Part shown: piece by piece, positions 6,665-54,585 of the stretch
Numbering within the stretch: position 1 is the stretch's first letter
Layout of the letters: the number at the start of each line of letters is the position of its first letter
Sequence record: OQ411014.1
Strand: one strand, 5' to 3'
Source of the DNA: Escherichia phage EJP2
Length of the DNA: 64,000 nucleotides
Program-made: the position numbers and the translations under genes
Notes under the pieces: model-generated
The model's database searches: none
Seen by the model: only the letters and a program-made list of their open reading frames with translations
What the model was told of the DNA's origin: nothing

Positions 6665-6672
6665 TATTTATA
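6665..6672 (-). promoter_or_regulatory. T4-type late promoter motif TATAAATA on minus strand (giant fibre gene)
   Basis: Plus-strand TATTTATA = minus-strand TATAAATA, ~60 bp upstream of start 6605. Confidence 0.5.
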
Positions 6673-8814: not shown

Positions 8815-8822
8815 TATAAATA
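8815..8822 (+). promoter_or_regulatory. T4-type late promoter motif TATAAATA
   Basis: Exact TATAAATA 33 bp upstream of ATG 8855; a gp55-like sigma factor is encoded in the window. Confidence 0.55.
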
Positions 8823-26922: not shown

Positions 26923-26930
26923 TATTTATA
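26923..26930 (-). promoter_or_regulatory. T4-type late promoter motif TATAAATA on minus strand (3337-aa gene)
   Basis: Plus-strand TATTTATA, ~36 bp upstream of start 26887. Confidence 0.5.
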
Positions 26931-30506: not shown

Positions 30507-30530
30507 GAAAGACACCCGAAGGTGTCTTAG
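30507..30530 (-). terminator. Hairpin with UUCG tetraloop after the gp25-like gene
   Basis: GACACC-CGAA-GGTGTC followed on the minus strand by TCTTTCTTTTT. Confidence 0.6.
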
Positions 30531-30533
30531 AAA

Positions 30534-30926
30534 TTATGCGGCATTTGAAACAATTGCCATCTTTTCGTTCGCTTCTCTGTCGAACTGTATGAATAGAGTT
30601 TCTTCGGTGTCGAGTTCCACATAGTAAAGGAACAAGTTAACACGAAAACCTCTATCAGTACTTAGGACTTCAACATATTGGAGTGAAACTCTAGGGTCAC
30701 CAGCAACAATGCGACGAGCATCCGCTTCTAATAGATTTTTATTACTATAAATGTCCAATTCAAATAATAAATCCCACCCTACAAATCCATATTGTGCATC
30801 CATAGCACGTTCACCTTTTCTGGTGTTGAAGTGGTTTAATAGATCGCGTTTGACTAGCTCCACATCATAAAGAACTTCAGTTCTTCCCACCTGTGGGGAT
30901 GCAAACCCCTTGTATATCACTGCCAT
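30534..30926 (-). CDS. 25: Baseplate wedge protein, gp25-like (130 aa)
   Basis: Size and motif (YDVELVKRDLLNHFNTRKGERAMDAQYG) match the gp25/GPW family. Confidence 0.65.
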   Translation of the reverse strand: MAVIYKGFASPQVGRTEVLYDVELVKRDLLNHFNTRKGERAMDAQYGFVGWDLLFELDIYSNKNLLEADARRIVAGDPRVSLQYVEVLSTDRGFRVNLFLYYVELDTEETLFIQFDREANEKMAIVSNAA

Positions 30927-30941
30927 ATTATTTTATCCTTA

Positions 30942-31430
30942 TTATTGGGATTCTACAATACGAGCTAATTTCTCTGCACGTGAAGTAGTTTGCTTATACC
31001 AAGTACTATCACGCATTTGACGTCCAGCTTCTTTATAATCACCCGCACCCATAGCAGCTAATGCTTTTTTGAAACCTAGAACACGACGTTTACCCATTTG
31101 AAAACACATTTGCCACAATACACGCTGGAGATCAATACCACCTTTCATACCGAATTGCTCATAAATCTCTTTTGCGTCATTAAATGCAACAGTTGCGTCT
31201 TTAATTAGTAGTGCATCGCCTTCTGACTCAGTTAAACCATTAGGAAATGTTTCGCCATTTACTAGCAAGTGACCATAACCAATAGTTGGTAAACCTAGAC
31301 TGTCTTTATATACATGAAACCGCCCGTTTTTAAAATATCCCTTCTTAGTTTGATAAGCGATAGTACCTTCATGCTCACGTACTTCTTTGTGGAAGATACT
31401 ATCGTCATTTTTTAAAACCCAATTGCTCAT
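30942..31430 (-). CDS. T4-lysozyme-like GH24 endolysin (162 aa)
   Basis: EHEG...YKDSLGLPTIGYGHLL and C-terminal MRDSTWYKQT align to T4 lysozyme with the catalytic Glu/Asp/Thr positions conserved; paralog of the C-terminal domain of the adjacent spike gene. Confidence 0.85.
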   Translation of the reverse strand: MSNWVLKNDDSIFHKEVREHEGTIAYQTKKGYFKNGRFHVYKDSLGLPTIGYGHLLVNGETFPNGLTESEGDALLIKDATVAFNDAKEIYEQFGMKGGIDLQRVLWQMCFQMGKRRVLGFKKALAAMGAGDYKEAGRQMRDSTWYKQTTSRAEKLARIVESQ

Positions 31431-31463
31431 AATTTACCCTCTGTTATGTTAGTGGTAAATTAT

Positions 31464-34157
31464 TTATGCACATGCCTCGATTCTGCGTGCTAATTCCTCA
31501 ACACGTCTACGAGTTTGTCTATACCAAGTACTGTCACGCATTTCATGGGCTGCTAATTTGTAATTGCCTGCTGCTAGTGCTTTTAAGAAATTGGTAAACC
31601 CACGAACGCCACCACCACGTGTTTTACTACCAGCACCAAGCTGGAATACCATCTCTGTCAGTACTATCTGTGCCATATAAGGTGTTTGCATCTTATATTC
31701 AGCATAAATTTGACATGCAGAGTTTACGGATGAAACCAAATCTTTTTTAAGAATAGTTTCAGCTTCAGCTTCTGTAATACCATTAGGGAAACCACCATCT
31801 GCTCTAGTTAGGAAGTGACCATAACCAATTGTCAGACCATGAGCATCAACATAAGGCCAGAATCTACCATTACGGAAGGTTCCAACTGATGTTTGGTATC
31901 CAATGTTACCTTCAAACTCTTTAATATCCGAAACAAGCTGGTTATCACTCGGTTGTACCTTCCAACCAATCTTGGATTTGTCAATAGAACTCAAATCAAC
32001 ACGTGAAGCAGGTGGCTCATTGGTTGCATTACTAGTTGAGCGTCGTTTCGCTGTTGTTCTTCGTGGGATACGTTTAGAACCACGTTGTGCATATCCAGTA
32101 CCGATACCACTTACCTTGCGAATGACAACCAAATCAGTACTGTCAACCGAACTTTGACTATCTGTAATTGGTGGAGCGTTCTTATTCGATACTTCACCCT
32201 TAGTTAGTGACTTGCCAGCGGCATCTTCACCTTGTCCAGTGACTGTTGTGTAGAATAATCCAGGGTCAACTGTACCACTAAAGCCAAATAAGTTTGCAGA
32301 ACGGGTTCTGACCTCAAAATTGAGCACTCCATTAACTGTACCAATTACTGCACCCTTTTGTACCATATCTTTATTGTACAAATTAGTACTGATACCGTAG
32401 AATATACTCTTATAACCACTCTTATGTGTAATTACTAAACCATTCTTACCTACAGTTGTGATTAATCCACCATCAGGGGCAACTACATCACCTTTGGCTT
32501 GAATAATCCAACCATTTCTGTTAGTTTGTGTTCCCTTATCAGTAGGTACTTGTTTACCCCAATAACCGAACTCACGAATAACACCACTCACAGGCATTAC
32601 CATCTGTAATCCTTCAAATGTTTGTGGATATGTCATTTCTGATGGAGATTGTGTTAAATCTTGTGTCATTACTTCACCAACTTCTTCAGTAGTGTTTATG
32701 AACTGAACTGCTTCTGTTTCCTGAACTGGAACAGTTTGAACTTCAACATCATTTGCTGGTTCTGGCTGTACTGGGTCAGTTGTTGAGCTTCTACCACCAC
32801 CATTTACTGGAGGATTCATTGCATCACTATGGTTTTCTGCATCAGTGAACTGTGAGTGATAGTGGATGTGGTCATTAAGGCCAACACTAGGAGTTTTGAA
32901 GTTTGGAGCCATAAATTCTGCACTTCCGTGGTTACCAGATGAATCAACTGTTAGTGTTTGTCCACCCCCACTAATATTAACTGTGGTTCCACCAATCAAG
33001 TTAGCAGATGTTTCACCTTTAATGGAAACAGTTGTTCCAGCAGTCATGTCCGTATTAGATCCACTCTGCATACGCAAAGATGCAGCAGTAACTAGACGTA
33101 AATCTGCTCCAACGTTAACAACTACCTGACCAGATACTTTAGTATCTAAAGAACCAAGCAATTCTAACTTAGTAGCTCCTGCTACACGCCAGTTCATATC
33201 TTTACCTACATCAAAGTTAACAGAACCTGTTGCATTGAAGTTAATGTCTTGACCAGAACGAATATTCACGTTCTTGTCACAATATAAATCAATATCACCA
33301 TCAGCAGTAAATTTAATACGAGCAGTACCATCGCGGTTAATCAAAAGAACGTCACCACTTGCTTCACTCAATAGTAATTGAGCACCACTACGAGTTCTTA
33401 GTACAATGCCTTCGTTTTTACGACCACCAACGGTTGTATCATTGACTGGGTTACTAAATTGGGTATCCTGATAACCATCTGGGTCATCAGCCCATGTAGG
33501 AGCATTCAATTCAGCATCTGTGTAGCCATCATCCAGAATAAAACTGTTTCCACGAGGTGAAGACATACCATAAACAGTACTGGTAGTTTGTCTAGTGGAA
33601 CTTCTGTTAGCAACACCTGCTTCTTCATCATATAGTAAGTTTTGTTTCTTCAATCCTTCAATCATTGGGACGTTTGGGTACTTTTCTTCACGATTTGTTT
33701 GAATTGTGTTACGATCATAGTCAGTTACTGGTACTGGCATGTCATGACCACTATTAGGCATCACTTCGGTTGCCATACCAGGAACCATTGTGTTCATACG
33801 CTCATCATATAGACATGCAAACCAATAAGCATCGAAAATACGACCTTGCTTAAAGCATACGGCAACTGTACAACCAACATCCGGTGGTACAGCCCAGAAT
33901 CCGTATCCTTTTGGGTACTGTTGATATGAGTTAGCTCCAGGAACACCCGGAGTTCTTCCTGCGAATGGGGCAAGATATCTTGCCTCAATCCATGAATCTT
34001 TAGAATCTCTGTCACTCTGAGAACCTTCAATCCAAACCTTTAGTTTCCCACTATGAGTTGGGTCACGGTTATCCATTACTGTAGCTAATTGGATAAATCT
34101 GGGGTCAAAACGTGCTAGTTGGTTTTCAGCGAACTGTTTACTGTTATTGGTCGCCAT
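31464..34157 (-). CDS. Baseplate hub spike, gp5-like, with OB-fold, beta-helix (HIHYH), degenerate M23/LytM-like domain and C-terminal T4-lysozyme-like domain
   Basis: N-terminal gp5/VgrG-type OB motif (ATVMDNRDPTHSGKLKVWIEG...WIEARYLAPFAG); beta-helix repeats with HIHYH; M23-like block (32307-32600) with zinc-ligand positions substituted; C-terminal domain (31464-31964) aligns to T4 lysozyme with catalytic residues intact. Start placed at MATNNSK (AAGGA RBS); track start is 34196. Confidence 0.8.
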   Translation of the reverse strand: MATNNSKQFAENQLARFDPRFIQLATVMDNRDPTHSGKLKVWIEGSQSDRDSKDSWIEARYLAPFAGRTPGVPGANSYQQYPKGYGFWAVPPDVGCTVAVCFKQGRIFDAYWFACLYDERMNTMVPGMATEVMPNSGHDMPVPVTDYDRNTIQTNREEKYPNVPMIEGLKKQNLLYDEEAGVANRSSTRQTTSTVYGMSSPRGNSFILDDGYTDAELNAPTWADDPDGYQDTQFSNPVNDTTVGGRKNEGIVLRTRSGAQLLLSEASGDVLLINRDGTARIKFTADGDIDLYCDKNVNIRSGQDINFNATGSVNFDVGKDMNWRVAGATKLELLGSLDTKVSGQVVVNVGADLRLVTAASLRMQSGSNTDMTAGTTVSIKGETSANLIGGTTVNISGGGQTLTVDSSGNHGSAEFMAPNFKTPSVGLNDHIHYHSQFTDAENHSDAMNPPVNGGGRSSTTDPVQPEPANDVEVQTVPVQETEAVQFINTTEEVGEVMTQDLTQSPSEMTYPQTFEGLQMVMPVSGVIREFGYWGKQVPTDKGTQTNRNGWIIQAKGDVVAPDGGLITTVGKNGLVITHKSGYKSIFYGISTNLYNKDMVQKGAVIGTVNGVLNFEVRTRSANLFGFSGTVDPGLFYTTVTGQGEDAAGKSLTKGEVSNKNAPPITDSQSSVDSTDLVVIRKVSGIGTGYAQRGSKRIPRRTTAKRRSTSNATNEPPASRVDLSSIDKSKIGWKVQPSDNQLVSDIKEFEGNIGYQTSVGTFRNGRFWPYVDAHGLTIGYGHFLTRADGGFPNGITEAEAETILKKDLVSSVNSACQIYAEYKMQTPYMAQIVLTEMVFQLGAGSKTRGGGVRGFTNFLKALAAGNYKLAAHEMRDSTWYRQTRRRVEELARRIEACA

Positions 34158-36489
34158 TGCTTGCTGTTCCTTCATCATAATCAGTAGTTTGGTCACGACG
34201 ACGTAGTGAACGGATCACTAATCCACCAGTTAATTGCTGGGTGAACTTACCAGAACCATCAAATTCACTCACAACACTGTTTACACGGTAAATTGTTTGC
34301 GTGAAGATGGTTGGTGTGTCGATTTCCAAAATACCTGTGTTGTTACTAATAGCAACAACGGGTTTAATATTCAATAGTAGATATGCTTCACTGTCAATGT
34401 AGTTTGCGAAGTGAATATCGTCATCACCGACAGCCATTTCTTGGTCATTTACAACTCTATCAAGGTATTGTAGGTAAGAGTAGTCACTCCATCCCAACCA
34501 GTACGGATCACCAATAACCTTCATGTCCAATTTACCTAAGAATGCACGGTTATAGTAGTTGTCACGCATCAAACGACGATCCATTTCGTATTCAGTACTG
34601 TTATCGTTTACAGAACCACTGGTTGCTGTTACGATGTTTGTTGGTTCCAACGGAATTGACTTAACTTGTCCATTATCAGAGCCAATACCTTCAGTACCTG
34701 CATAAGTTAGGTCATATTCATCACGATAGTCTTCAATATATTCATTTACACGAGCGTGAACGTCCAAACGTGTCTCAAGTTGTTCCTTGACACCTTCAAT
34801 TGATAAACCTAGTTTATCAGAAGCGGCTGCGGTTGCATCACGTATGAATTGTTGCTCTTCATCTGATAGTGCACGACCTTCACGCTCATCTTTCTCCAAC
34901 TGAACCTTCTTTGACCACATTGCAGTTACGTTTGTGGTTACTGACGTATCATATCGAACATCATCGAGTACTAATATTTCAGCATTGTGAGTACCTAAAC
35001 GGTTGTCGAAGTCGATTTGTGTTGTTGGGTTACGTGTTACTGCTAAGTTGAATCCTTGGTCGAATTTAATATCCAGATTAAGAATTTCTTGGTTAAGACC
35101 TGTAAACTGATAGTCATAACGTTTAATATTCAATTTAGGAGTATTGTCATTTGGGTCTGCGAATTTATCTGCATTCTCAAAGAAGTATTCAATGTTGAAT
35201 TTGTCTTGCTTTAAGTCATCTTCACTAGTTACATCACCAATTTTATATTTTACAATATAGAAATCGTTTTTATAGACTGATGTATTACGAATATTATCAA
35301 ATCCGACATAACGACGAACTGGAATGATATTCACGAACTGACGTTTGCGGTCAGTACTTTCATGTAGAGGAACACAACAGTCCAGTACATCATCTATTGC
35401 ACGAGAGAATGGCACGTTAGCAGCCCAAGAGAAGTTCTTAGCACCTTGTTGACCATTCTTAGTATTACCAACTTCAGTACTTTGTTTAGCATCATAGTTG
35501 ATAGTCATAGTTGCTAGTTCAGAAGGAACATGAATAGTAAAGAATTCATTGTTTGCAAATTCTGGATATTTAAATGTTAAATAACCATACTGTTCTTCTG
35601 CTTGTTCATTTAGTTTATCCTGAATGCTTTGAAGAAAGTCACCAAAGGTTGCTGATGTGCATGTATATGGTTCTAGCATTGTCCAGTCTTTGTTATCAAC
35701 CAATGCAGTACGGTTTGCCACTAAATTCATGTCGTACTTAACAGTACCACCAGATTCAGTTGCACGACCTTTAATATCGTTAATCCTCACACACCATTTA
35801 CGGTTCAATCCAGTTATAGTTTCTGGTTTACCAGTATTTTGGTCATATCCAACGAAGTTCAATTCTAATACCATTGGCACGTCCATGAATTTTTGATATC
35901 CAAGACGGTTAGACATTACAACTATCTCATCCCATAAACTCATACCTGAGTCTTCTGAAATTTCAATAGTACATTCGTTGAATGAGAAGTTTGAAGTACT
36001 GGCTGGTGTCGCTGGTGCTACACTTTTGATTTTTACGTTAGTAATTGAATATCTTCCAGTTACCCCAGATTGTGCTATAATATATTTTGTAATTTGTTGG
36101 TTCGGTGATGACCAAAACAACGCATATTCTTCGGGTTCCATACTGTACAAAGAAAAGTTCCAAGTTACATTATGATACTTCAAAAGAATATTTTCATATG
36201 GTAGTACTATGTCGTTTAGGTTCCAGTCATTCTTAACTGACAAGTCATCAGTACTTCTAGCGTTAGTATTCTTTGGTCTTTCATCATTCGGTTTAGCACT
36301 AAATGGGTTAGAAATATTTGGCATTGCACCTTTAACCACATTAGTGACTTCTCCTTTGACAGTACTTTTTACTTTATCGATTGAAGGAATCTTACCTTTA
36401 ATTTCGGCAACTTTCTCTTGAGCAACTTCAACTGGTCTGTTGAGTTGGTCAACTGTAGCTGTAACGATTCCTTGTACATTATTTGCCAT
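34144..36489 (-). CDS. Hypothetical baseplate-associated protein (781 aa)
   Basis: Long ORF immediately upstream of, and overlapping, the gp5-like gene; RBS AAAGGA. Confidence 0.5.
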   Translation of the reverse strand: MANNVQGIVTATVDQLNRPVEVAQEKVAEIKGKIPSIDKVKSTVKGEVTNVVKGAMPNISNPFSAKPNDERPKNTNARSTDDLSVKNDWNLNDIVLPYENILLKYHNVTWNFSLYSMEPEEYALFWSSPNQQITKYIIAQSGVTGRYSITNVKIKSVAPATPASTSNFSFNECTIEISEDSGMSLWDEIVVMSNRLGYQKFMDVPMVLELNFVGYDQNTGKPETITGLNRKWCVRINDIKGRATESGGTVKYDMNLVANRTALVDNKDWTMLEPYTCTSATFGDFLQSIQDKLNEQAEEQYGYLTFKYPEFANNEFFTIHVPSELATMTINYDAKQSTEVGNTKNGQQGAKNFSWAANVPFSRAIDDVLDCCVPLHESTDRKRQFVNIIPVRRYVGFDNIRNTSVYKNDFYIVKYKIGDVTSEDDLKQDKFNIEYFFENADKFADPNDNTPKLNIKRYDYQFTGLNQEILNLDIKFDQGFNLAVTRNPTTQIDFDNRLGTHNAEILVLDDVRYDTSVTTNVTAMWSKKVQLEKDEREGRALSDEEQQFIRDATAAASDKLGLSIEGVKEQLETRLDVHARVNEYIEDYRDEYDLTYAGTEGIGSDNGQVKSIPLEPTNIVTATSGSVNDNSTEYEMDRRLMRDNYYNRAFLGKLDMKVIGDPYWLGWSDYSYLQYLDRVVNDQEMAVGDDDIHFANYIDSEAYLLLNIKPVVAISNNTGILEIDTPTIFTQTIYRVNSVVSEFDGSGKFTQQLTGGLVIRSLRRRDQTTDYDEGTASNGDQ

Positions 36490-37668: not shown

Positions 37669-38532
37669 ATGATAAACACTAAGCCGAAGCGTAAGAAGTA
37701 TTTGAATAACGCTGACTTACTAAGAGAGATACACATAAGTAAAATGTCGTATTGCTATCTGCTAGATCGTGCTTATAGTATGTATGACTACATAGTTTTT
37801 GATGAATCCGAAATCACTGAAGAAATCTTAGAAAAGGCTTCAGCGGCTCGAATCAAACGACTAAACAATGAAGCGATTGACAAGATTCGCGTAAAAGATG
37901 GACTATCAGCTAAGAAAGCGAAAGAACAAGCTGAAAGTTTAGGTGTAGTATTGAGTACTGTACCACAAGATGAAGTAGTGATTCGTGTAATCACCGATGA
38001 ACATATCCCTTTCGATGCTTCCAACAAGAAAGGTGAGAAGTTCCGAGTAAACTTTGAACCATTCAAACACTACATCGTTGATGATTGTGGAGAGATAGTT
38101 GAAGTTGGTCGGTCACATTGGCGTGGTGATTTAGAAAACGGTGAGTTCTCAATGGACCACGGTCGAATTACAAATGAACTCGGTAAAATGTTTATCAAAC
38201 TTGCTGAACAGATTTCACACAAGACTAACTATAGACGTTATACGTACTTGGATGAAATGATGGGCGATGCTCGTGTTCAACTAGTCAAGAATGCTCTTCT
38301 CTTCAAAGAAAGTATTCTGTACAAAAAAGTGAAACCTGCTGTGCAGTTGAATCCCTTTTCATATTATACATCGTTTGTTAACAACGCGTTTCGTTCAGTA
38401 CTGAATGCTGAAAAGAATGTACGTAACATCCGTGATGATTTGTTGGAATTGAATGGCTTTAACCCAAGTCATACTCGTCAACTAGAAATCGAAATTCAAA
38501 TGCAAGAAAGGAAAAACAATGGCACTATTTGA
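37669..38532 (+). CDS. 55: Late-transcription sigma factor, gp55-like (287 aa, with a ~100-aa insertion relative to T4 gp55)
   Basis: N-terminal TKPK..Y.NN.DLL motif and C-terminal region (LAEQIS..NYRRYTYLDEMMGDA...NPFSYYTSFVNNAFRSVLNAEKN) align to T4 gp55; sigma70-type promoter at 37586-37615. Confidence 0.75.
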   Translation: MINTKPKRKKYLNNADLLREIHISKMSYCYLLDRAYSMYDYIVFDESEITEEILEKASAARIKRLNNEAIDKIRVKDGLSAKKAKEQAESLGVVLSTVPQDEVVIRVITDEHIPFDASNKKGEKFRVNFEPFKHYIVDDCGEIVEVGRSHWRGDLENGEFSMDHGRITNELGKMFIKLAEQISHKTNYRRYTYLDEMMGDARVQLVKNALLFKESILYKKVKPAVQLNPFSYYTSFVNNAFRSVLNAEKNVRNIRDDLLELNGFNPSHTRQLEIEIQMQERKNNGTI

Positions 38533-42218: not shown

Positions 42219-42263
42219 ATCTACACCTTTTGGACAATGATTCTAGTTACTTTATTTAGTTTA

Positions 42264-42464
42264 AGTACTATCATTGTCATCCACCAGCATTCAGTACTTC
42301 TATTATGCATGTTCTGTGTATACAGGAATCACAAAAGTACTAATGACCTTTCTGAAATCCTTGCAGTACTAAGGATGTCCAAAACTCTTGGAGAATGTAC
42401 TTAGTTGCAGTACATAGAGAAGAGTACTATGCTCACGTAATGAAATTATTTTCGAAAAAGTACT
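42264..42464. repeat. Cluster of six AGTACT(A) palindromic hexamers in non-coding DNA
   Basis: AGTACT at 42264, 42293, 42336, 42365, 42423 and 42459; five are AGTACTA; between the endoVII-like start and the promoter at 42471. Confidence 0.6.
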
Positions 42465-42470
42465 AGAAAA

Positions 42471-42500
42471 ATGAGATGCAAACATAAAATGTGATATAAT
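42471..42500 (+). promoter_or_regulatory. Sigma70-type promoter firing rightward into the ORF-free locus
   Basis: ATGAGA 42471-42476, TGATATAAT 42492-42500; no ORF with RBS downstream for ~700 bp. Confidence 0.65.
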
Positions 42501-43040
42501 ATAAGTACAAGTTCATAAGGTCAGTTTTTACTGATACAGATTAAACCCAATTCACTCGAAAATGTAGAGGATGGATGAGTAGACTTATGACTACGTAGTG
42601 CAAAAGAAACCCGTTAGGAGATGGCATAGTTTGTACCACCCACGGCAATGTGGCACTTTAAATGAACGCGATAAGCAGACAGACGTTCACTAGATAGACA
42701 TATAAGGCTACCTTACCACACTTGCTAAGGGAGTTCAGTTCAGAACTTGTTTTGAGCTTGAACAGCATTAAGATTCGATTGTATGGATTTTAATGTATGC
42801 GTACTAAGACTACGACCGTTGCACATGACCGTGATAGAGAGAAACAGAGCAACCCGCTTTCGTTCTGACTTGTTCAGAAATTCACGATACAATAATTCCG
42901 ATGCTATCAGCGTCAAGCAATATTTCAGATCCTTAATTGGGTCTTTTTTATTGTCTTCATTCCCCTGCGGGGGGATGAAATTGCCTCAACAAATCTCGTC
43001 AAGTATTAAAGTATTAATTAGTTCTTAATAATTAAATTAT

Positions 43041-43105
43041 TAAATGAATTGAGATTCATTAGAGTGAAACGAAGTGAACGATAAATGAATTGAAGATTCT
43101 TAGAC
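43041..43105. repeat. AT-rich direct repeats (iteron-like) in the ORF-free locus
   Basis: TAAATGAATTGAGATTCATTAGAG (43041-43064) and TAAATGAATTGAAGATTCTTAGAC (43082-43105), a third AATGAATT near 43164 and tandem AGTATTAA x2 at ~42998-43013, within a very AT-rich stretch 42990-43180. Confidence 0.55.
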
Positions 43106-43179
43106 AATCGAAGATTGGCTAATCAAATACTTTCTCCTAAAGAATGATTCAATAATAATTCTTAATGAATTTTAAATAC

Positions 43180-43205
43180 AAAAAAAACCAGCAACAATGT
43201 GCTGG
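43180..43205 (-). terminator. Minus-strand terminator after the 83-aa gene
   Basis: CCAGCA-ACAATG-TGCTGG hairpin preceded on plus by AAAAAAAA (U-run on the minus-strand RNA). Confidence 0.6.
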
Positions 43206-43457
43206 CTATTGATTCATTTTCTTCATTCTTTTGTTATACGACTTCACCATTAAATCCCTTGTCTGTACTGGCATATTCAGTAATGACTCATAGGAAGTGT
43301 TCTCTATAGCAACAGCAGCATCCATCAATGACACCTGAATGTCATTGACATTAAACTCCATATCACTTAGAATCTCTTTTATTTCTTCCGGTTCACTAAT
43401 GAGAAGTCTAGTCCGAAAAAATGGGATGGGTCGTATTTTAGTCCAGTCAATTCCCAC
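43206..43457 (-). CDS. Small hypothetical protein; start uncertain (83 aa from first ATG, ~51 aa from MEFNV)
   Basis: The longest ORF overlaps the upstream 288-aa gene by 79 nt in a different frame; the internal start at 43361 removes the overlap. Confidence 0.3.
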   Translation of the reverse strand: MGIDWTKIRPIPFFRTRLLISEPEEIKEILSDMEFNVNDIQVSLMDAAVAIENTSYESLLNMPVQTRDLMVKSYNKRMKKMNQ

Positions 43458-48596: not shown

Positions 48597-48604
48597 AAAA
48601 AGTA
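48597..48604 (+). promoter_or_regulatory. T4-type late promoter motif TATAAATA (acidic core protein)
   Basis: Exact TATAAATA ~52 bp upstream of ATG 48656; extended TATAAATAATCACATACTGAAA resembles the motif upstream of the capsid gene. Confidence 0.55.
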
Positions 48605-48655
48605 TAAATAATCACATACTGAAATATAAAATTTTGTATATCTTTGGAGGATATC

Positions 48656-50194: not shown

Positions 50195-50202
50195 TATAAA
50201 TA
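50195..50202 (+). promoter_or_regulatory. T4-type late promoter motif TATAAATA (scaffold gene)
   Basis: Exact TATAAATA ~54 bp upstream of ATG 50256. Confidence 0.55.
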
Positions 50203-54276: not shown

Positions 54277-54582
54277 ATGCAAATATGTTACGTAATCACC
54301 AATAAAGCATGGCCTGAGTGGGTAAAAATTGGATTCACATCTAAATCAGAGATGAAATCCAGACTAAGTACATACCAGACGGGTTCACCATTTAGAGATT
54401 ATGAAGTATATCATGAAGTACTATTTGATGATGCGAAATCCGCTGAAAAAGAAGTACATAAGCGTTTAAAACAAATGAATGCAACTAGATCACCAGGGAC
54501 TGAGTGGTTTAAAATGAGTAAAAAAATAGCAGCCAATATGATTGATTCAGTTCTAGATGATATAGAGAACGACTTGCTATAA
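54277..54582 (+). CDS. Stand-alone T5orf172-domain protein (101 aa), homing-endonuclease-like
   Basis: ICYVITNKAWPEWVKIGFT...RLSTYQTGSPF...EKEVHKRL...GTEWF matches the T5orf172 pattern; GGGAGA RBS. Confidence 0.6.
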   Translation: MQICYVITNKAWPEWVKIGFTSKSEMKSRLSTYQTGSPFRDYEVYHEVLFDDAKSAEKEVHKRLKQMNATRSPGTEWFKMSKKIAANMIDSVLDDIENDLL

Positions 54583-54585
54583 ATA
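54578..54585 (+). promoter_or_regulatory. T4-type late promoter motif TATAAATA (tail fibre gene)
   Basis: Exact TATAAATA 38 bp upstream of ATG 54623. Confidence 0.55.

Follow-up and report, generated by a model that had tools for sequence, protein, structure and literature searches.

Lysozymes of the T4 type are encoded side by side in Escherichia phage EJP2, where the gene for the central spike (baseplate hub) protein, which ends in a lysozyme module, is directly followed by a gene for a free-standing lysozyme of 162 residues. We have analysed this gene pair in a 64,000-nucleotide stretch of sequence record OQ411014.1, which is called the window below and to which positions refer unless another record or locus is named. 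Both copies belong to the GH24 family as judged by profile, catalytic residues and fold, and they appear to be true paralogs of one GH24 subfamily that stands apart from T4 e and gp5. The arrangement of spike and free lysozyme has already been published and is an old conserved feature of Rak2-like phages. The best explanation of the sequence data, and of a structural model, is that the free gene encodes an intact, soluble and catalytically competent GH24 muramidase. From these data we also infer that the free copy arose by duplication, that it uses a promoter of its own and that it has a role in lysis, and these three points are graded individually below.

Both genes lie on the minus strand. 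The spike open reading frame (ORF) occupies 31464..34196 and encodes 910 residues, with its identity given by Pfam and PHROG scans. After a gap of 33 nt comes the free lysozyme ORF (30942..31430, matched by PF00959), and 15 nt past its stop codon is the start of a gp25-like baseplate wedge gene (30534..30926, 130 residues, phrog_43; PF04965 at 31.7 bits with a cut-off of 27.2). The lysozyme module of the spike covers residues 745-910 (31467..31964), as delimited by BLASTP against the free copy and by alignment with T4 e and gp5. By BLASTP, residues 4-161 of the free protein correspond to spike residues 745-908 (nucleotides 31964-31473), with 75 identities in 165 positions (45%, E = 4e-42), and PF00959 (Phage_lysozyme) scores 33.7 bits in the free protein and 33.4 bits in the spike C-terminus with a cut-off of 22.3. 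The equivalents of the catalytic residues Glu11, Asp20 and Thr26 of T4 lysozyme are E21, D43 and T49 in the free protein and E762, D784 and T789 in the spike. A sequence search of the PDB matched T4 lysozyme and gp5 at E values of 1e-10 to 1e-12. The initial annotation, made from the letters alone, had described a clear similarity between the two proteins and a catalytic Glu/Asp/Thr kept in both; each of these statements holds, and the motifs and coordinates that it quoted are present. A tblastn search of the 64-kb window with both copies finds these two loci only and no third lysozyme.

The free protein has a mass of 18.4 kDa and an isoelectric point of 9.1, and is without a signal or transmembrane segment. 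Its maximum Kyte-Doolittle hydropathy over 19 residues is 0.52 and its N-terminus, MSNWVLKNDDSIF, is polar. An AlphaFold2 model made with 49 homologs has a mean predicted local distance difference test score (pLDDT) of 92.9 and a predicted template modeling score (pTM) of 0.85, and the top Foldseek matches of this model are T4 lysozyme structures (template modeling score 0.71-0.72, root-mean-square deviation 2.7-3.0 A). The protein consists of the GH24 domain alone, with no other Pfam or PHROG domain, as the lysozyme fold and a 10-residue N-terminal extension fill the 162 residues. A structural or docking domain, which the spike copy has, is absent. The catalytic triad is invariant in 69 of 69 free orthologs. 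For the free gene, pairwise ratios of nonsynonymous to synonymous substitution (dN/dS) are 0.09-0.23, and those of the spike lysozyme module are 0.17-0.39, which suggests that both copies are under purifying selection with the free copy held more tightly; a point against this reading is that dS is saturated, so that the ratios are rough and their values approximate. Activity has been reported for a close homolog: LysUE1 of Asteriusvirus UE-S1 (162 residues, 68% identical to the free lysozyme) was cloned, purified and put forward as an antibacterial and lyses EDTA-treated cells, in a 2025 study that did not determine which bond is cleaved (PMC12805682).

Protein matches to the free lysozyme at E <= 1e-30 occur in 74 deposited phage records, all of which are Rak2-like jumbo myophages of ~350 kb, including members of Asteriusvirus, Alcyoneusvirus, Eneladusvirus and Mimasvirus. 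Erwinia phage Hallingskeid gives the best match (82%), and in 68 records the identity is 61-82% over at least 98% of the length. The spikes of Rak2-like relatives are 57-79% identical to the window spike with an equal domain order. The gene order spike, lysozyme, gp25-like is found in every core-clade locus analysed, IMG/VR loci included, and in the Rak2-like relatives too a gp6-like gene comes next, giving spike, lysozyme, gp25-like, gp6-like. Homologs of the free lysozyme and of the spike apparently co-occur on contigs down to spikes that are 49% identical to that of the window. DNA nearly identical to the window was not found by megablast among 50,697 deposited phage records; public read assemblies hold a 100%-identical spike and a 99%-identical free lysozyme.

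The spacing of the pair does vary. RaK2 and K64-1 have ~1.8 kb with four small ORFs between the spike and free lysozyme genes, as against 33 nt in the window; in RaK2 these inserted ORFs, 074-077, are two per strand (L004 4391-5884; 64.8-66.3 kb of the RaK2 record). An unusual protein was also noted on a 4.2-kb contig of a JGI metagenome (P0068, 236 residues), in which the first ~43 residues are gp25-like and are fused to a spike linker and lysozyme module; an assembly artefact of the chimeric kind or a rearrangement is the probable explanation.

These proteins have been described before. By identity and synteny, the free lysozyme is the ortholog of RaK2 ORF073, CBB_239, 121Q gp586 and LysUE1. 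The RaK2 genome paper of 2013 listed three lysozymes, ORF029, ORF073 and ORF078, and reported 66% similarity between ORF073 and the lysozyme domain of ORF078 (PMC3622015). In 2017 the paper on Pectobacterium phage CBB identified CBB_238 as gp25-like, CBB_239 as a T4-type lysozyme and CBB_240 as a spike with a gp5 OB domain, a possible M23 domain and a C-terminal lysozyme (PMC5259590). The pair in the window is one more instance of this RaK2 and CBB gene pair and carries little weight by itself.

The relationship of the two copies was analysed with 222 lysozyme domains, comprising free orthologs, spike modules, prophage-type endolysins of ~150 residues, RaK2 ORF029, T4 e and T4 gp5, from which neighbor-joining (NJ) trees with bootstrap were calculated on 153 columns. 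All of these domains other than T4 e and T4 gp5 have an insert of 13 residues between the catalytic Glu and Asp. Both window copies additionally have an N-terminal 'W.v...D..l' extension and a C-terminal 'RAE..A+.vE' signature, and the insert and terminal signatures together are common to free and spike copies and not to the 150-residue prophage endolysins. T4 e and gp5 split from all other domains in 100% of NJ bootstraps. Alignment and phylogeny of both domains with the T4 enzymes was the check that the initial annotation had proposed, and its result is that the two fall within one GH24 subfamily and not into different, distant lysozyme clades.

The initial annotation had further taken the adjacency of the two genes to suggest that a local duplication, or a fusion/fission event, is seen here at an intermediate stage. 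That the pair is recent and unstable in this sense is highly improbable, being refuted by comparative data. The genes are indeed adjacent and on the same strand at a distance of 33 nt, and the spacer happens to keep the reading frame. Against this, the arrangement is fixed across 74 genomes of several genera, free orthologs have diverged among themselves to ~53% identity, and each copy appears to be under purifying selection. A recent duplication was rejected on the basis of 45% protein identity and the lack of extended DNA similarity, the only likeness that blastn finds between the copies being stretches of 79 nt and 24 nt over conserved motifs. Gene conversion, or concerted evolution, was rejected as well, as the identity of the free copy to its own spike (53%) equals that to spikes of other phages (52%). 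Stop-codon read-through or a spike-lysozyme fusion was likewise rejected: the 33-nt spacer contains a second in-frame TAA, and the two ORFs, which are in frame in the window and in Hallingskeid, are out of frame in fHe-Yen9-03, where the spacer is 35 nt. Two lysozyme modules in one spike were found in none of 95 homologs. What stands of the earlier proposal is a duplication of the 3' end of the spike gene, as an old event that is favoured and unproven, while a recent event and fusion/fission both fall away.

Such a duplication, in an ancestor of the core Rak2-like phages, would be the most economical origin of the free gene. It is favoured because the free copies are closest to core spikes, because they have a C-terminal signature in common with them, and because spikes are the commoner sister group. 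Specifically, the mean identity of free copies is 50% to core spikes, 48% to free lysozymes of a second type found in distant lineages (the PNR type), 43% to distant spikes and 42% to the 150-residue endolysins. The C-terminal sequence 'RAE..A(R/K).(V/I)E(S/A)(C)' is found in free copies and core spikes, and the other groups have 'QTPNRV'. Free orthologs are monophyletic in 62-76% of bootstraps, and among the replicates with this clade, 34% give it a sister group made up of spikes only and ~11% one made up of non-spikes only.

The alternative is that the free gene is no duplicate of the spike, and that a GH24 endolysin of the same subfamily was acquired horizontally and inserted beside the spike, perhaps repeatedly. 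We consider such an acquisition unlikely, while giving it real weight. More distant relatives bear on both accounts. Four of the six distant lineages sampled (P0196, P0200, P0208 and P0215) have no free gene and their spike gene directly abuts gp25, which counts for the duplication; the loci without a free lysozyme are those labelled L008, L009, L011 and L012. In favour of acquisition, the remaining two, L010 (with P0197; 8633-9145) and L033 (8654-9142), have a free lysozyme of the PNR type at the spike-gp25 junction. These two enzymes end in 'QTPNR' and are no closer to their own spike than to other lysozymes; they are nearer to the stand-alone proteins P0069 and P0073 than to their own spikes, and the contig of P0073 carries lambda-like genes for a terminase and a portal. 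In a well-resolved tree of the spike N-terminal region (705 columns), L033, a carrier, is sister to L012, a non-carrier, with 100% bootstrap. This sister pair, along with the two types of lysozyme and the absences, indicates repeated gain or loss at the junction, and the four small ORFs at the RaK2 junction indicate that this site tolerates insertions.

Several of these observations weigh against the duplication. Bootstrap support is almost nil at the deep nodes of the domain tree, and the phylogeny at this depth is too weak to separate duplication from acquisition, so that the choice between them is not established. The occurrence of a differently signed lysozyme at the same site in two distant lineages also leaves duplication as favoured and not as proven. 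Acquisition, for its part, has to contend with core free copies that carry the 'RAE' signature of core spikes and not the C-terminus of the PNR type or of the 150-residue endolysins, with core spikes as the group of highest mean identity, and with a spike-only sister group that is ~3 times as frequent as a non-spike one. Adjacency is also most simply explained by tandem duplication, which we continue to prefer.

The control signals around the free gene suggest how it would be expressed. A T4-type late-promoter-like motif, CATAAATA, overlaps the stop codon of the spike gene (31461..31468, minus strand) 31 nt upstream of the lysozyme ATG, and a Shine-Dalgarno sequence, GAGGG, can be read at 31437..31441 on the same strand. 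On the 3' side of the gp25-like gene a terminator scan identified an intrinsic terminator-like hairpin, AAGACACCTTCGGGTGTCTT, followed by a T run (30509..30528, minus strand), and directly past it, before the next gene, is another late-promoter-like motif, GATAAATA (30500-30493, minus strand). The T4 late-promoter consensus TATAAATA has six exact copies in the window (6665-6672 and 26923-26930 on the minus strand; 8815-8822, 48603-48610, 50195-50202 and 54578-54585 on the plus strand), a count that is not above chance and a placement that stands out, as 6/6 are 15-60 nt upstream of gene starts on the same strand. Of 14 occurrences of the relaxed form NATAAATA, 9 precede a gene start on the same strand by 7-38 nt, and TATAAAT[CGT] is mostly intragenic. 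Hallingskeid, fHe-Yen9-03 and RaK2, which represent three other genera, have the promoter-like motif 5' of the lysozyme gene in the corresponding position, in RaK2 as an exact TATAAATA ~40 nt upstream of the free lysozyme, and the hairpin followed by an ATAAATA motif past gp25 is kept in all three phages. The window also encodes a gp55-like late sigma factor, on the plus strand at 37669-38532 (PHROG and Pfam scans). Thus, the free lysozyme and gp25-like genes may well constitute a late two-gene unit, into which transcripts of the spike gene would also read through. Under this model the free lysozyme would be produced late in infection, with transcription both from spike read-through and from its own T4-type late promoter, and the transcript would run on through the gp25-like gene and end at the hairpin behind it.

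The free lysozyme has no export signal and is therefore expected to be cytoplasmic; it could not export itself and would depend on disruption of the membrane. Its preferred role is that of an accessory endolysin that would reach the cell wall after the membrane is breached, and would act alongside a membrane-anchored LysM-GH24 enzyme. We advance this soluble, late and membrane-breach-dependent function tentatively, at a little under even probability. The free lysozyme resembles the canonical holin-dependent endolysins in being a soluble enzyme, and is basic and soluble like T4 e. A lysis cassette is not seen around it, as it is flanked by spike and gp25-like genes, and the 'endolysin' label for the free copy is unproven.

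A number of observations weigh against a role in lysis. As the initial annotation had remarked, there is no holin or spanin ORF beside the free copy, whose neighbours are the spike and gp25-like genes with no small hydrophobic ORF near. A hydropathy scan of 50 non-overlapping ORFs extends this result to the rest of the 64-kb window, where no holin or spanin was found; its hydrophobic candidates were two tiny ORFs at 42.2-42.8 kb, inside an RNA region described below, and one 1003-residue protein. Additionally, a protein with a transmembrane segment, a LysM-like region and a GH24 domain (the ORF029 type) is conserved in the same ~70 genomes. Its CBB member, CBB_187, in which an N-terminal transmembrane segment is combined with a LysM-like region and a lysozyme domain, was proposed as the endolysin, and its RaK2 homolog is gp506, i.e. 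ORF029 (PMC5259590). As this separate and conserved LysM-GH24 protein is predicted to be the main endolysin, the free lysozyme may not be needed for lysis. By tblastn there is no ORF029-type gene inside the window, and we place it outside because in Hallingskeid, the closest relative, it is 57 kb from the free lysozyme. The neighbours of this gene are an RNA ligase and a tRNA nucleotidyltransferase, with no annotated holin, and the lysis system of Rak2-like phages is poorly defined. Finally, the fixed place of the free gene in a baseplate operon, where it would be co-transcribed with gp25, hints at a link to the tail, and mass spectrometry provides one further observation of this kind. An 18.1-kDa 'tail lysozyme' was listed in particle preparations of three Eneladusvirus phages, with 1-2 peptides only.

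The last two points bring up the possibility that the free lysozyme is a low-copy virion component, which would dock on the spike or on the baseplate at gp25 and reach the periplasm during infection, adding a second or third activity against the wall to that of the spike lysozyme. Mass spectrometry of virions has given conflicting results for the free copy. In CBB virions the spike was detected and CBB_239 was not, and according to the authors only the gp25-like protein and the spike were confirmed as structural in Rak2-like phages (PMC5259590). The phAPEC6 virion list has gp241 (the spike) and gp244 and neither of the two genes in between, and the RaK2 virion proteome missed even the spike (PMC3622015). 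In the Eneladusvirus data the spike is represented by 5-49 peptides and a 14.8-kDa baseplate protein by 6-12, among 89 detected proteins that include five of nucleotide metabolism. The free lysozyme is probably not a regular virion protein, being unseen in the CBB, phAPEC6 and earlier Rak2-like proteomes when both of its neighbours have been found in some study.

Several observations speak for a low-copy component. The gene keeps an invariant place between spike and gp25 in a late structural operon, with predicted co-transcription with gp25, and a free GH24 gene is present at exactly this junction in two distant lineages also. Changes at the active site of the spike would fit a division of labour between the copies. 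Of 79 core-clade spikes, 54 have T at the Thr26-equivalent and the other 25 have a replacement (D in 20, S in 4, N in 1), whereas this residue is never replaced in the free copy; the catalytic Glu and Asp are invariant in 79/79, and the window spike has T. On the opposite side are the failure to detect the protein in CBB or phAPEC6 virion proteomes, single-peptide detections from a data set that also lists non-structural proteins, a bare T4-lysozyme fold with no docking domain, and the four of six distant lineages sampled that do without a free lysozyme. On balance we consider a virion location unlikely, though with real weight, and less probable than the role in lysis. A broader version, which we judge to be quite unlikely, is that the repeated installation or loss of free GH24 genes at the spike-gp25 junction has a functional cause and is not due to chance, in which case the free enzyme would be a true baseplate partner. 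The junction is of the 'RAE' type in the core clade and of the 'PNR' type in two distant lineages, and is without a free lysozyme in four lineages.

Residues at the catalytic positions also vary in individual spikes. The Hallingskeid spike (L001 5259-7967) is among those with Asp at the Thr26-equivalent, some distant spikes have Ile, Cys, Ala or Val at this position, and in one distant spike (P0215) the whole catalytic triad is gone.

The spike protein itself has an unusual architecture. It is matched end to end by phrog_13211, a baseplate hub and tail lysozyme family, and its domain order is an OB fold (residues 37-84; PF04717 at 25.1 bits with a cut-off of 23.8), a beta-helix (~residues 290-420), an M23-like domain (residues 565-622) and the C-terminal GH24 module, which is kept in 95 of 95 full-length spike homologs retrieved. 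The gp5-type order of OB fold, lysozyme and beta-helix is not present, as the lysozyme is C-terminal to both the beta-helix and the M23-like segment. This order was already remarked upon by the authors of the RaK2 (PMC3622015) and CBB (PMC5259590) papers, and spike orthologs have been detected in virions of CBB (PMC5259590), phAPEC6 and the pEa_SNUABM phages.

The M23-peptidase-like segment is below the Pfam threshold (21.8 bits vs 28.7; residues 589-629, window 32310-32432). It reads VLNFEV at what we take to be the position of the zinc-binding HxH of active M23 enzymes, and no HxxxD is evident. This segment is probably a degenerate, non-catalytic LytM-type domain. A DHIHYH motif closes the beta-helix region (residues 442-447, window 32856-32873), and its H443 and H445 do not vary among 14 diverse spikes. 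In spikes of the P2 gpV type, iron is bound at the apex by HxH motifs. If DHIHYH marks the tip of the spike, then ~460 more residues, comprising a linker, the M23-like segment and the lysozyme, would hang past the tip, as in 'evolved' VgrG proteins.

Comparison with known systems begins with T4, which resembles the Rak2-like phages in having a free basic GH24 enzyme of ~18 kDa together with a spike-borne GH24 module. Within-phage identity is 47% for the T4 pair and 45-47% for the window pair, as compared to ~31% across the groups, and the catalytic Glu/Asp/Thr are common to both. There are also differences. In T4 gp5 the lysozyme is between the OB fold and the beta-helix, whereas in the window spike it is the last domain, at the very C-terminus; T4 e and gene 5 are ~11 kb apart, which agrees with the initial annotation's statement that they lie far from each other, whereas the window genes are 33 nt apart; and the T4 enzymes do not have the 13-residue Glu-Asp insert of the Rak2-like subfamily. 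Because the T4 pair constitutes its own clade at 100% bootstrap, T4 and the Rak2-like phages have paired a spike lysozyme with a free lysozyme independently. The window pair seems to work like T4 e and gp5 without being descended from the T4 pair. A mutation in T4 gene 5 can rescue lysis of e-defective phage, so the tail lysozyme and the free lysozyme can substitute for each other.

A second likeness concerns the spike only and not the free gene. The 'evolved' VgrG spikes of type VI secretion bear C-terminal effectors, for example the peptidoglycan hydrolase of Vibrio cholerae VgrG-3, and like the window spike they have an OB-fold/beta-helix spike with a wall-degrading enzyme past the helix. 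The window spike differs in being a phage structural protein and in that its enzyme is GH24. Signal-anchor-release (SAR) endolysins such as P1 Lyz, and the RaK2 gp506/CBB_187 type, have the GH24 catalytic family in common with the free lysozyme. The catalytic domain of RaK2 ORF029 is 28-31% identical to both window copies, and ORF029 has a hydrophobic N-terminus (hydropathy 1.63, residues ~12-30) and a LysM-like middle, whereas the 162-residue protein has neither. The cryo-EM paper on phiKp24 was considered for comparison and set aside, as it deals with an unrelated phage and offers no model of a lysozyme or baseplate.

The gene content of the window agrees with these assignments. PHROG and Pfam scans place the gp25-like wedge gene, a gp6-like wedge gene of 1171 residues and a virion protein gene of 3344 residues around the spike gene, and farther out are genes for a tail sheath, fibres, a portal, SbcCD, endonuclease VII and the gp55-like late sigma factor. 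As judged from these genes and from the protein matches given above, the window is the tail and baseplate module of a Rak2-like jumbo myophage.

The window also contains what looks like a phage RNA family that has not been described, and which is unrelated to the lysozyme finding. Between the endonuclease VII-like gene and a baseplate-hub-like gene is an ORF-poor gap of 1.16 kb (42219-43378) that has no ORF longer than 83 residues, and yet its DNA is conserved above the neighbouring genes (84% in Hallingskeid, 78% in Salmonella phage Munch), with ~160 nt that are 100% identical to Munch. RNAalifold and strong covariation support an unannotated structured RNA candidate of ~350 nt on the minus strand (42543-42892) within a wider conserved block (42484-43376). 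With 13 sequences it has 61 predicted pairs in 10 helices; 96.8% of cells are paired vs 37-48% in controls in which partners were slid by 1-3 columns, compensatory double changes occur in 27 pairs vs 2-6 in the slid controls, and the covariation score is 0.361 vs ~0.05. The region has no match in Rfam 15 above noise level and no tRNA or tmRNA by ARAGORN, and its core motif, GAACGAAAGCGGGTTNCTCTGTTTCTCTC, does not occur in any of 185,579 genomes of bacteria and archaea. At least two phages have the core motif twice per genome, as paralogs with different peripheral helices. RaK2, which is not among the blastn matches of the window copy, has a weak nhmmer match to the RNA profile (E 1e-19) that is cut by the end of the locus (L005 3-304; ~7.0-7.3 kb) and is non-syntenic, near ORF014w and an rI.-1-like gene.

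Upstream of the RNA, past a small conserved ORF whose substitutions have a codon-phase bias, is a conserved rho-independent terminator, ATAGCCAGCACATTGTTGCTGG followed by T8 (43180-43209, minus strand). Between this terminator and the RNA are two -35-like CTTGACG boxes on the minus strand (42990-43003 and 42903-42917). The putative -10 of the second box falls in the first helix of the RNA, which makes the position of the start site ambiguous.

Beyond adding an instance to a known gene pair, the analysis contributes four points on the biology of Rak2-like phages. The first is a late lysozyme-gp25 unit with a promoter motif and a terminator, as read from the sequence. The second is that the free copy appears to be constrained more than the spike copy, with an invariant triad and a lower dN/dS. 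The third is the independent pairing of a spike lysozyme and a free lysozyme in T4 and in Rak2-like phages, and the fourth is the patchy presence of the free gene, as two sequence types, in more distant relatives. Together they sharpen the question of whether the free lysozyme is an accessory endolysin or a hidden virion component, and the answer would end the inconsistency among the proteomic studies. If the enzyme is a baseplate partner after all, it could be a detachable second lysozyme that is delivered with the spike, or a back-up for spike modules that are changed at the Thr26-equivalent, and it would represent an arrangement of tail-associated enzymes that has not yet been described structurally.

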